DNA from: a virus
Lineage: Duplodnaviria > Caudoviricetes
IMG/VR virus record: IMGVR_UViG_3300043395_004688
Direction: 5' to 3' (one strand)
Length of the DNA stretch: 64,000 nucleotides
This document shows positions 17,812-19,001 of this stretch, in pieces (within the stretch, counting starts at the first letter, position 1; each line of letters begins with the position of its first letter). The notes beneath the pieces are model-generated. The model was not told the DNA's origin. It searched no databases and saw only the letters and a list, made by a program, of their open reading frames with translations. Both the position numbers and the translations under genes were made by a program.

Positions 17812-17997
17812 ATGTCAAATCATGAAACATTACTCGAGCAATTTGAAGCCTACAAGGCCGAAAACGAAAAGTTTGCTGTCAAGGGCGTAAAAGCCAGTGC
17901 GGCTCGTGCTCGTAAAGCACTACAGGAAATGAGCAAGGCCATCAAGGAACGCCGCAAGGAGATCACTGCGGAGAAAGAAGCTCTTGCGGCCAAGTAA
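17812..17997 (+). CDS. Small basic histone H1-like (Hc1-family-like) nucleoid protein
   Basis: ENEKFAVKGVKASAARARKALQEMSKAIKERRKEI; SD AAGGAG upstream. Confidence 0.7.
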   Translation: MSNHETLLEQFEAYKAENEKFAVKGVKASAARARKALQEMSKAIKERRKEITAEKEALAAK

Positions 17998-18425
17998 TGA
18001 CATGGCTGTACCAAGAGTCTGTTGTTAACACCCTACCAGAAGATTGCGTAGGATTTGTGTATTTGATAACAAATATCACAAACAATCGTAAGTACATTGG
18101 GAAAAAGTTGGCTAAGTTTAGTAAGACAACTTATCGGGTCGTTAAACAAAAAAATGGTATCAAAAAGAAAAAACGCATACGAACAAAAATTGACAGCGAC
18201 TGGCAAGAATATTATGGCTCATCACCTGAACTAAGCAAAGATGTAGAACTCTTAGGCAAAGACAACTTTATCAGAGAAATTCTACATTTTTGCAAAAGCA
18301 AATCCGCTTGTAGCTACCTAGAAGCAAAAGAACAATTCGACAGAAAAGTACTAGAATCACTAGACTATTATAACGGTCATATCCAAGTTAGAGTTCACGG
18401 CTCTCACATCCTAGGCAAATTATAA
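17997..18425 (+). CDS. Single-domain GIY-YIG nuclease
   Basis: GFVYLITNITNNRKYIGKK (GIY-YIG); conserved E in SYLEAKEQF; 142 aa with no extra DNA-binding domain. Confidence 0.85.
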   Translation: MTWLYQESVVNTLPEDCVGFVYLITNITNNRKYIGKKLAKFSKTTYRVVKQKNGIKKKKRIRTKIDSDWQEYYGSSPELSKDVELLGKDNFIREILHFCKSKSACSYLEAKEQFDRKVLESLDYYNGHIQVRVHGSHILGKL

Positions 18426-18880
18426 CTCACCCCGGCCCAGCTGCGTAAAACGCAAACTACAAAAGGCTTCTTATCACTACCGATAAGCCTGTGTCGGCTG
18501 GTTAACAGACACCCATAAAACCTGGCACTAGGGTTGCACAGGGGACGGAACACCTGACGCGGTAGCAGGGACTTGACTGCCACTATCCTTGACAGGACGC
18601 AATTCACGGTATGAAACGAATTGGCACAAGTATACGATGACCAAAATGAGTAGGCTCTGGTGAACTATTACAACCTACAATATTACGCAAGCAGATTGGA
18701 TTGCTTTCGTAATATGCGTTATAACAAGACAAGCGTAAAAGGGTACAGCATAACCGCCCTAGCTGGAAACAGTTGCTTAATCCAATGTGACATGGGGGTC
18801 TGAGTCAAGATCAAAATGTTTTTCTTAGCCGGTAAAACGGCTAAGTGTGACTGGTAAATCTAAGTCAAGTAATCATAATG
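18426..18880 (+). ncRNA. Large, highly structured non-coding RNA (ROOL-like candidate)
   Basis: No credible ORF; at least ten hairpins, an 8-bp loop pseudoknot (ATTGGATT 18695-18702 with AATCCAAT 18779-18786), an 8-bp long-range helix (ACTTGACT 18571-18578 with AGTCAAGT 18863-18870), a GAAA tetraloop and a duplicated 24-nt module. Family and strand are inferred; boundaries approximate. Confidence 0.65.
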
Positions 18881-18950
18881 TTAATCAAATGATTCACTAT
18901 TAAACAAATCTAAATTGTTTCTAAGTTAATCACTCTAAATCAATAAAACC

Positions 18951-19001
18951 TGAATGAGTAGAGCGAAGCGATACGAAATTCAAGGGCGATGAAATCGCCC
19001 T
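18951..19001. other. Twin hairpins at the convergence of the + operon and the - baseplate genes (probable terminator/processing site)
   Basis: TGAAT(18951-55)...ATTCA(18978-82) imperfect stem, then AGGGCGAT-GAA-ATCGCCCT (18983-19001). Confidence 0.5.

Follow-up and report, generated by a model that had tools for sequence, protein, structure and literature searches.

The window analysed here, a stretch of 64,000 nucleotides (nt) from a virus of the Caudoviricetes (Duplodnaviria), is part of the 177.7-kilobase (kb) IMG/VR virus record IMGVR_UViG_3300043395_004688. Between positions 17812 and 19001, it carries the 3′ end of a gp47-gp46 DNA-end-processing operon, in which genes for an Hc1-type basic protein and a GIY-YIG nuclease are followed by an RNA gene. 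Sequence comparison assigns this RNA to an orphan family that is already known, Polynucleobacter-1 (RF01718), in its long form. What appears to be new is the extent of the conserved unit, which by alignment covers about 516 nt (18486-19001) and thus goes beyond the published 300 nt or so, and which has a homologue in islands of Polynucleobacter. We favour, with moderate confidence, the reading that an autonomous Polynucleobacter-1 RNA gene of about 500 nt is read through from the gp47-gp46-nuclease operon and acts in trans, beside an EndoII-like DNA nuclease.

A sequence-only reading of the same positions had noticed the Hc1-type (H1-like) protein, the nuclease and a large structured RNA, and had proposed that they form an undescribed ribonucleoprotein module. 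All three parts are real, which confirms the observation. Support for the interpretation is partial: the adjacency and a probable co-transcription hold. From the distribution described below it does not follow that a ribonucleoprotein is obligate or novel, and such a particle is an unproven hypothesis.

The RNA belongs to a known family but is longer than the published motif

When positions 17700-19300 were compared with Rfam, RF01718 was the sole family that reached an E-value of 0.1. The match (18486-18631, + strand) scored 85.9 bits against a gathering threshold of 37 (E 7.8e-17) and spanned model positions 1-141 of 141. With a full-model match of this strength, the RNA belongs to a known family, and the idea of an undescribed system had to be given up on this point. 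The next 170 nt or so aligned with the 3′ extension in the seed alignment published in 2010, and the ACCGCC of the 3′ domain is located at 18753-18758. That alignment (Weinberg et al., 2010; PMC2864571) holds 16 sequences, most of them about 280-300 nt long, with the 3′ extension and a pseudoknot, and one seed, from a lake/estuary metagenome, is of the window's own subtype. In a table row of the same publication, the motif is given 'y' as RNA, 'y' as cis-regulatory element and '?' as switch, with Burkholderiales and fresh water/estuary as its sources. In the supplements of PMC2864571, which give alignment, drawing and table rows, no descriptive text on the gene context of the motif was found, and a full-text literature search on the name Polynucleobacter-1 yielded nothing beyond the 2010 paper.

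For covariation analysis, at least 119 IMG/VR loci were clustered at 90% identity, which gave 86 non-redundant relatives, and the base pairs were taken from RNAalifold. Among these 86 sequences, compensatory changes were found in 44 of the 61 pairs. For the long-range pseudoknot (helix 13, 18695-18701 with 18780-18786), all seven pairs (7/7) were compensated. It can be seen from the alignment that 91.5% of the cells were paired, as compared with 35-40% when the partners were slid, and none of 500 shuffles reached the observed values (0/500). The single-sequence fold of 18426-19010 was modestly better than that of shuffled sequences (z -2.26).

The RNA starts 60 nt past the nuclease stop codon in the window and 5-30 nt past it in most loci, and in the window's subfamily this distance ranges from 60 to 165 nt. 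At the other end, the tail is conserved among the 11 members of this subfamily, and the hairpin at 18824-18845 has kept its pairing through base changes. When the window was compared with its closest relative (L011), 57-60 out of every 60 bases were identical between 18442 and 18861, which is above the level of the flanking genes. Across 70 related loci, the median span free of open reading frames (ORFs), measured from the RNA start to the next ORF of at least 60 amino acids (aa), was 459 nt. The last hairpin (18983-19001) has no clear U run on the + strand and was missed by a consensus terminator scan. The Polynucleobacter version of the RNA shows its elements in the same order, with the G/A-rich hairpin at the same relative place, and a profile of the bacterial tail gave collinear matches in 14 phage loci (E 1.4e-9 to 4e-3). 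Since the tail hairpins are conserved and the Polynucleobacter version matches in order, a 'large RNA' up to 19001 is reasonable, and the tail may be part of one molecule. The sequence-only reading had drawn the RNA from the stop codon to 19001; these outer limits were about right, but the Rfam match begins only 60 nt past the stop.

A separate unit in Polynucleobacter islands and the end of an operon in phages

The RNA was detected in 17 bacterial loci, mostly of Polynucleobacter, and in 6/6 loci tested it matched RF01718 with 86-98.5 bits. There, it sits between a divergent DUF6641 gene and the gene of a 188-aa tyrosine recombinase (Phage_integrase family), with a promoter-like TATAAAT before it and a terminator hairpin after it. 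Between islands with diverged genes, the segment of about 480 nt that holds the RNA is the best conserved DNA. We found the RNA in 13 of 121 Polynucleobacter species genomes, four of which carried two copies, a distribution typical of mobile accessory elements. No GIY-YIG relative was found by tblastn in any of the 17 bacterial RNA loci (0/17), and PF19835 was absent from four whole Polynucleobacter genomes (0/4), while the positive control on the window's own record matched. A profile of the phage 3′ domain gave no match in the 17 bacterial loci; the tail profile does link them. The search for DUF6641 in the window's record was negative, but it matched nowhere and is hence without weight.

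Several side observations concern these islands. The loci L121-L137 (e.g., L133:4342-6356) share a fixed module of divergent DUF6641 gene, RNA of about 480 nt and a 188-aa tyrosine recombinase that consists of the catalytic domain only. One Polynucleobacter genome carries two copies 18 kb apart (L124, L136). In a Polynucleobacter flank (L131:1404-1507, - strand), we also observed a glycine riboswitch (RF00504, 59.1 bits), which is unrelated to the RNA described here.

In the phage, consensus promoter and terminator scans detected no more sites than in shuffled sequences, and none on the + strand between 18366 and 18486. In most relatives the RNA starts a few bases past the stop codon, and a promoter would not fit in between. 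These data agree with the sequence-only reading, which had seen no separate promoter. In metatranscriptome libraries of three studies, there are contigs that run from the nuclease gene across its stop codon into the RNA (17926-18522, 18383-18568, 18186-18526), and RNA-library contigs of two studies end at 18795/18796, which is a weak hint only. These data are assembled contigs, which give no strand, ends or level, and their uncovered parts mean nothing; since contigs cannot exclude DNA carry-over, the bridging is weak evidence. Nuclease and RNA are probably co-transcribed, and the single transcript suggested for all three parts is likewise probable, considering the one-base overlap of the two ORFs, the lack of promoter enrichment and the contigs over the stop codon.

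The same observations are compatible with a cis-acting operon end, in which the RNA would be a 3′-untranslated element of the gp47-gp46-nuclease mRNA that protects it from 3′ exonucleases, insulates the convergent operons or tunes a potentially toxic nuclease. The RNA always ends the + strand operon, whichever ORF is last, it starts a few bases past the stop codon, RNA-library contigs span this codon, and a terminator-like hairpin at the RNA end faces the convergent operon. However, a fold that covaries over about 330 nt and includes two pseudoknots far exceeds the needs of mRNA stabilisation, and in Polynucleobacter the RNA seems to be its own unit, with promoter-like site and terminator, and not the 3′ end of a gene. 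The 2010 listing as a probable 5′ cis-regulator (table row in PMC2864571) misfits the phage context, too. We consider this explanation unlikely, although it is the alternative that survives best.

Nuclease and RNA are close neighbours but occur without each other

Co-occurrence was quantified from both sides. The RNA-first sample comprised at least 119 IMG/VR loci found by a pattern spanning both RNA domains; 74 of them had at least 450 nt of upstream sequence, 41 had short flanks and 4 had no room upstream. The nuclease gene was located directly upstream of the RNA in 69/74 loci (within 170 nt, mostly 5-30 nt), and in another 4/74 the nuclease was followed by one unrelated ORF of about 280 aa that ended at the RNA 5′ end. 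Only one of the 74 (L020) lacked a GIY-YIG gene. Here, a gene matching PF24608, 'phage putative PDDEXK endonuclease' (L020:2884-3402, + strand, E 2.5e-29), stands where the GIY-YIG gene would be expected, with a small basic ORF before it and the RNA behind it. In the short-flank loci, the nuclease C-terminus abuts the RNA in 37/41, the exceptions being L085, L093, L110 and L117. As to the inserted genes, three different ORFs of about 280 aa were seen between nuclease and RNA (L010:~2456-3394, L017:~2548-3387, L081:~2556-3410; RNA-oriented coordinates, minus-strand matches), and each of them ends no more than a few bases from the RNA 5′ end.

The nuclease-first sample consisted of the best 80 IMG/VR relatives of the nuclease (67-96% identity), which were chosen regardless of the RNA. 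RF01718 was present in 48 of these 80 records. When the 76 loci with enough downstream sequence were searched with profiles of both RNA domains, the RNA was found directly after the stop codon in 58 and after one inserted ORF in 6, and 12 of these close relatives carried no RNA within 1.5 kb. A variant RNA was seen in 12 of the 58 (L152, L153, L164, L165, L169, L173, L175, L176, L188, L198, L205, L210; ~1930-2350 in each). It has a different 5′ domain, which RF01718 does not detect in any of the 12 loci, and the same 3′ domain (GGUACC..ACCGCC) and tail hairpin-loop motifs. Because the variant 5′ domain is joined to the same 3′ domain and tail, these data suggest that the RNA is modular and that its 5′ part has been exchanged.

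Some of the RNA-less loci showed other features. In L166, L204, L206, L214 and L219, an ORF of 370-420 aa (start ~1915-1930) overlaps the nuclease stop codon at the place expected for the RNA; it has a membrane-looking N-terminal region, and Pfam gave only a sub-threshold Tetraspanin match (L166). In L154 (~2190-2330) and L211 (~2070-2280), the nuclease is followed by a small CxxC..CxxC-like ORF and then by a different conserved non-coding stretch, which is similar in both and may be another structured RNA.

A second clade was represented by the best 80 relatives of the nuclease of phage Melnitz, which share 51-61% identity with the window nuclease. In most of these loci gp46 is located upstream, and the median gap past the nuclease gene was 64 nt for 71 marine relatives. 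RF01718 was confirmed in L266, L264 and L288, 13-78 nt past the stop codon. Weak 3′-domain matches of nhmmer in six marine loci (L253, L258, L246, L267, L273, L245; E 7.6e-5 to 2.7e-3) were not confirmed by Rfam at E 0.1, and since these six failed, the nhmmer count of 12/63 loci with RNA is an upper estimate for this clade.

Beyond these two clades, the nuclease is frequent, too. We found the family in 506 phage records, 339 of which are from Synechococcus phages; others are from Sinorhizobium, Erwinia and Stenotrophomonas phages, and the Melnitz protein shares 53% identity. In phage records these relatives are often annotated as 'NAD synthetase'. Nearly all T4-like cyanophages carry a member, located elsewhere in the genome and not accompanied by the RNA. 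RF01718 was detected in none of the three whole genomes searched (Melnitz, S-SRM01, phiM12), where 29-148 nt separate the nuclease gene from the next gene; the corresponding gap is 6 nt in phage C48C1 and 0 nt in Variovorax phage V45v66. A distant-mode blastn search of 17812-19010 against 50,697 phage records gave no match. In a FastTree phylogeny of 140 nucleases that were not chosen by RNA (72 with and 68 without it), the RNA state changed at least 11 times, although this number is perhaps inflated because the tree of a 142-aa protein is poorly resolved. Taken together, the check for co-occurrence that the sequence-only reading had suggested gave a divided answer: the adjacency is strong, but the pairing is not obligate in either direction.

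The proposal had also included a variable guide-like segment in the RNA. Neither column variability nor the comparison of the window with L011 revealed a guide-like unpaired hypervariable segment; the highest-entropy columns fall in covarying stems with tetraloop-like caps, so that the variable parts are paired stems. The only loose spacer (18870-18950) shares 46-48 of 60 bases with L011 and thus diverges about like the neighbouring coding DNA, at the level of its most divergent segments.

A functional nuclease-RNA pair would mean that, in this lineage, the upstream nuclease is bound, targeted or regulated by the RNA 3′ domain or processes it. The tight adjacency across two nuclease clades and across the swap of the 5′ domain argues for such a pair, as do the missing DNA-recognition domain and the basic hairpin of the nuclease, and in L020 it is a different nuclease that precedes the RNA. 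Yet each partner is found without the other, unrelated ORFs can separate them, and the RNA was gained or lost at least 11 times while the nuclease was kept. The basic hairpin is present in RNA-less relatives, too, and neither the paired variable stems nor a spacer that diverges no faster than coding DNA look like a guide. What stands of the RNA-nuclease system proposed for this operon is the very frequent adjacency; an obligate pairing is not supported. We rank a functional pair next among the alternatives and regard it as rather improbable.

A small single-domain nuclease

The nuclease matched PF19835 (SegE_GIY-YIG) over residues 3-129 with 112.5 bits and passed the curated cut-off of 25; its C-terminus lies 13 residues past the last matched position. 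An AlphaFold2 model made from 40 relatives (predicted local distance difference test score 92.1) shows the GIY-YIG core and a long beta-hairpin (residues 40-66), the tip of which is the basic loop. Pfam match and model agree with the sequence-only description of this protein as a catalytic domain plus a basic loop. The best fold match obtained with VIA-align was the I-TevI catalytic domain (Z 8.6, root mean square deviation 2.7 over 82 residues), and further matches were the restriction enzyme PD-T4-3 (Z 7.3), the N-terminal domain of UvrC (Z 5.5) and T4 EndoII (2wsh; Z 5.4, root mean square deviation 3.8 over 85 residues, 14% identity). PDB sequence searches with the single nuclease or with the 40-sequence profile gave nothing below E 0.2 and did not reach EndoII. 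With Foldseek, no PDB match was obtained at E <= 0.001 (I-TevI at E 0.11), and NCBIfam yielded only a sub-threshold match to group I intron endonucleases.

Among the 40 relatives, 36 columns are invariant. They include Y22, Y33, G35, Y72, E109 and N126, and R62 is at least 90% conserved; by comparison with I-TevI, these seven are the putative catalytic positions. The basic hairpin is also conserved in the RNA-less phages Melnitz, S-SRM01 and phiM12. Across 40 loci, the median identity of the nuclease was 70.7% vs. 53.0% for gp46. Because it is better conserved than gp46, the nuclease appears to be under purifying selection, unlike a decaying selfish gene. A literature search on GIY-YIG proteins among cyanophage core genes found nothing on this small nuclease family.

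These data bear on the possibility that the nuclease is a selfish, free-standing homing-type enzyme that cuts in or near the RNA gene of nuclease-less phages, so that both are inherited jointly. T4 SegB acts in this way within the tRNA gene cluster. In favour of this possibility, the family takes its Pfam name from T4 SegE, the closest fold is the catalytic domain of a homing endonuclease, the RNA is the most conserved DNA nearby and would be a good target, and the site shows gene turnover (inserted ORFs, the PD-(D/E)XK nuclease in L020). However, the two-domain build of homing enzymes was not found: the protein has 142 aa with one domain and a beta-hairpin, and the C-terminal DNA-binding domain is missing. 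Nor is its presence patchy as expected of a homing gene, since it occurs in 73/74 RNA-first loci and, as said, is better conserved than gp46, and its family is near-universal in T4-like cyanophages elsewhere in the genome, without the RNA. A selfish nuclease is still less probable than a functional pair.

How RNA and nuclease may work

In our favoured reading, the RNA would be made by read-through of the operon and would persist as a stable 3′-end product. It may act in trans on something that is common to these phages and to the mobile islands of Polynucleobacter, most likely a host factor. The nuclease would work on DNA without the RNA, much as T4 EndoII nicks host DNA that is later degraded by the gp46/47 exonuclease, with the basic beta-hairpin as a putative DNA contact. 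The adjacency would then reflect a conserved operon end and no obligate ribonucleoprotein. A minimal GIY-YIG nuclease within a gp47-gp46 operon fits, by analogy, an EndoII-like division of labour without RNA.

Several points weigh against this reading. The trans-acting role of the RNA is something we infer. The adjacency of nuclease and RNA (69/74 and 58/76, usually 5-30 nt) is as tight as for true partners, and it holds in two nuclease clades that are only about 55% identical, in spite of rearrangements on both flanks. In the 12 loci with another 5′ domain, the phage 3′ domain has stayed with the nuclease, and the sole replacement gene before the RNA (L020) is again a nuclease. The nuclease is without any DNA-recognition domain, and its fold is less similar to EndoII (Z 5.4) than to I-TevI (Z 8.6), with no sequence search reaching EndoII. 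Since the 3′-domain profile misses the bacterial RNAs, the bacterial loci are a counter-example mainly for the 5′ domain and the tail. Finally, all loci are metagenomic, and the counts were not corrected for shared ancestry.

Least probable of all, in our view, is that the RNA of about 500 nt is a new, class-sized structured RNA of which Polynucleobacter-1 represents the 5′ third only, and that it forms particles with the adjoining DNA enzyme (in T4-like phages a domain-poor GIY-YIG or PD-(D/E)XK nuclease, in Polynucleobacter islands the tyrosine recombinase of 188 aa that has just the catalytic domain) and supplies the nucleic-acid recognition that these enzymes are missing.

Layout of the locus

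The coordinates of the features are given in Table 1. The gene content around the locus of this freshwater phage is T4-like, with a gp55-like late sigma factor, MazG and the gp47/SbcD-like and gp46/SbcC-like genes, all on the + strand. In most related loci gp46 is likewise located upstream of the nuclease gene, and gp26-like convergent genes follow downstream on the minus strand. The Hc1 ORF starts 11 nt past the gp46 stop (17800) behind an AGGAG, and it shares one base with the nuclease ORF. No ORF resembling a gene was found in the 593 nt of 18426-19018, and a search of the window for tRNA and transfer-messenger RNA (tmRNA) was negative. An ORF of 1081 aa (20219-23464, + strand) adjoins the baseplate hub gene; its N-terminal part resembles a coiled coil, and it contains numerous hydrophobic repeats rich in Gly/Ala.

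The basic protein matched Hc1 (PF07432) with residues 1-56 of 61 and 46.5 bits, above the curated cut-off of 23.5. By iterative search, 34/69, 23/74 and 32/77 loci of three samples had a homologous small ORF directly 5′ of the nuclease gene, and Fisher tests without correction for ancestry gave no association between this ORF and the RNA (p 0.49 and 0.75). The Hc1-type gene is a frequent neighbour and no constant third part. Its membership in a module, as suggested by the sequence-only reading, is not borne out by a gene that varies independently of the RNA and lies directly upstream in only 23-34 of 69-77 loci.

Table 1. Features at the 3′ end of the gp47-gp46 operon (positions in the window; aa, amino acids)
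Feature	Position	Strand	Basis
gp47 / SbcD-Mre11-like nuclease subunit	15003..16025	+	Pfam Metallophos; phrog_100 E 2e-65
gp46 / SbcC-Rad50-like ATPase subunit	16022..17800	+	phrog_77 E 1.5e-102; Pfam AAA_23
ORF of 61-aa Hc1-type basic protein	17812..17997	+	PF07432 E 3.2e-12
ORF of 142-aa single-domain SegE-class GIY-YIG nuclease	17997..18425	+	PF19835 E 2e-32; phrog_447
Linker between stop codon and RNA, two small hairpins; most relatives lack it or have a much shorter one	18426..18485	+	sequence
RNA 5′ domain, corresponding to the whole RF01718 model; helices 2-11 covary	18486..18631	+	Rfam, covariation
RNA 3′ domain with two variable hairpins, invariant GGUAC..ACCGCC element and long-range pseudoknot	18632..18800	+	2010 seed alignment
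Three conserved tail hairpins (~18790-18819, 18824-18845, 18849-18866)	18787..18866	+	11-member subfamily alignment
A/U-rich spacer, poorly conserved, length varies among relatives	18870..18950	+	alignment, comparison with L011
G/A-rich hairpin near RNA end, conserved in 9/11 subfamily members	18951..18982	+	alignment
Terminator-like hairpin between convergent operons	18983..19001	.	stem compensated in relatives
Convergent genes: 75-aa ORF and gp26-like baseplate hub	19019..20130	-	PF12322 T4_baseplate E 2.4e-13; phrog_150

Significance and comparison with known systems

The outcome is mostly corrective: the parts come from known families, and the ribonucleoprotein keeps the rank of a hypothesis. 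Polynucleobacter-1, an orphan since 2010, is now placed at the end of a gp47-gp46 recombination-nuclease operon, nearly always behind a conserved minimal nuclease gene, and this constant neighbour is the first candidate partner for the RNA. Among T4-like phage contigs from fresh water, and among some marine ones, the RNA is abundant (at least 119 loci), and it is common to phages and mobile islands of Polynucleobacter, a dominant freshwater bacterium. Its retention in a lytic phage lineage as well as in host islands suggests that it takes part in conflicts between phages and hosts or between elements.

When compared with the published Polynucleobacter-1, the window RNA fits the full model of RF01718 and then the 3′ extension and pseudoknot of the 16-sequence alignment. 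The motif as given in the alignment of PMC2864571 ends at about 300 nt, whereas the window unit runs to the terminator at about 516 nt. Unlike the published motif, it is located at the 3′ end of a phage operon, has 5′-domain variants and is common to T4-like phages and Polynucleobacter islands.

According to PMC2764454, T4 EndoII (DenA) is a single-domain enzyme without separate DNA-binding domains, which starts the degradation of host DNA that the gene 46/47 exonuclease completes. The window nuclease, too, is a small single-domain GIY-YIG protein, and its gene lies in the gp47-gp46 operon. In contrast to EndoII, its family is of the SegE type and its activity is predicted only; the similarity is at the fold level, so that the link to EndoII is an analogy and no shown orthology. 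With the T4 Seg proteins and I-TevI, the window nuclease shares the family and fold of the catalytic domain and the intergenic position beside a conserved gene, but it differs from them by the missing C-terminal DNA-binding domain, its near-universal presence in the lineage and its good conservation.

TnpB and IscB with their omega-RNA are RNA-guided nucleases with an adjacent structured RNA. As in these systems, a compact nuclease gene stands beside a large conserved structured RNA; the differences are another nuclease fold, no variable guide, a pairing that is not obligate and no transposon ends seen. OLE, GOLLD and ROOL are large orphan structured RNAs of bacteria and phages, to which the window RNA has no sequence or Rfam relation. 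With these RNAs it shares a length of several hundred nt, strong covariation, multiple pseudoknots and the association with phages and mobile elements, and the conserved unit of about 500 nt is within the size range of such large, unexplained RNAs.

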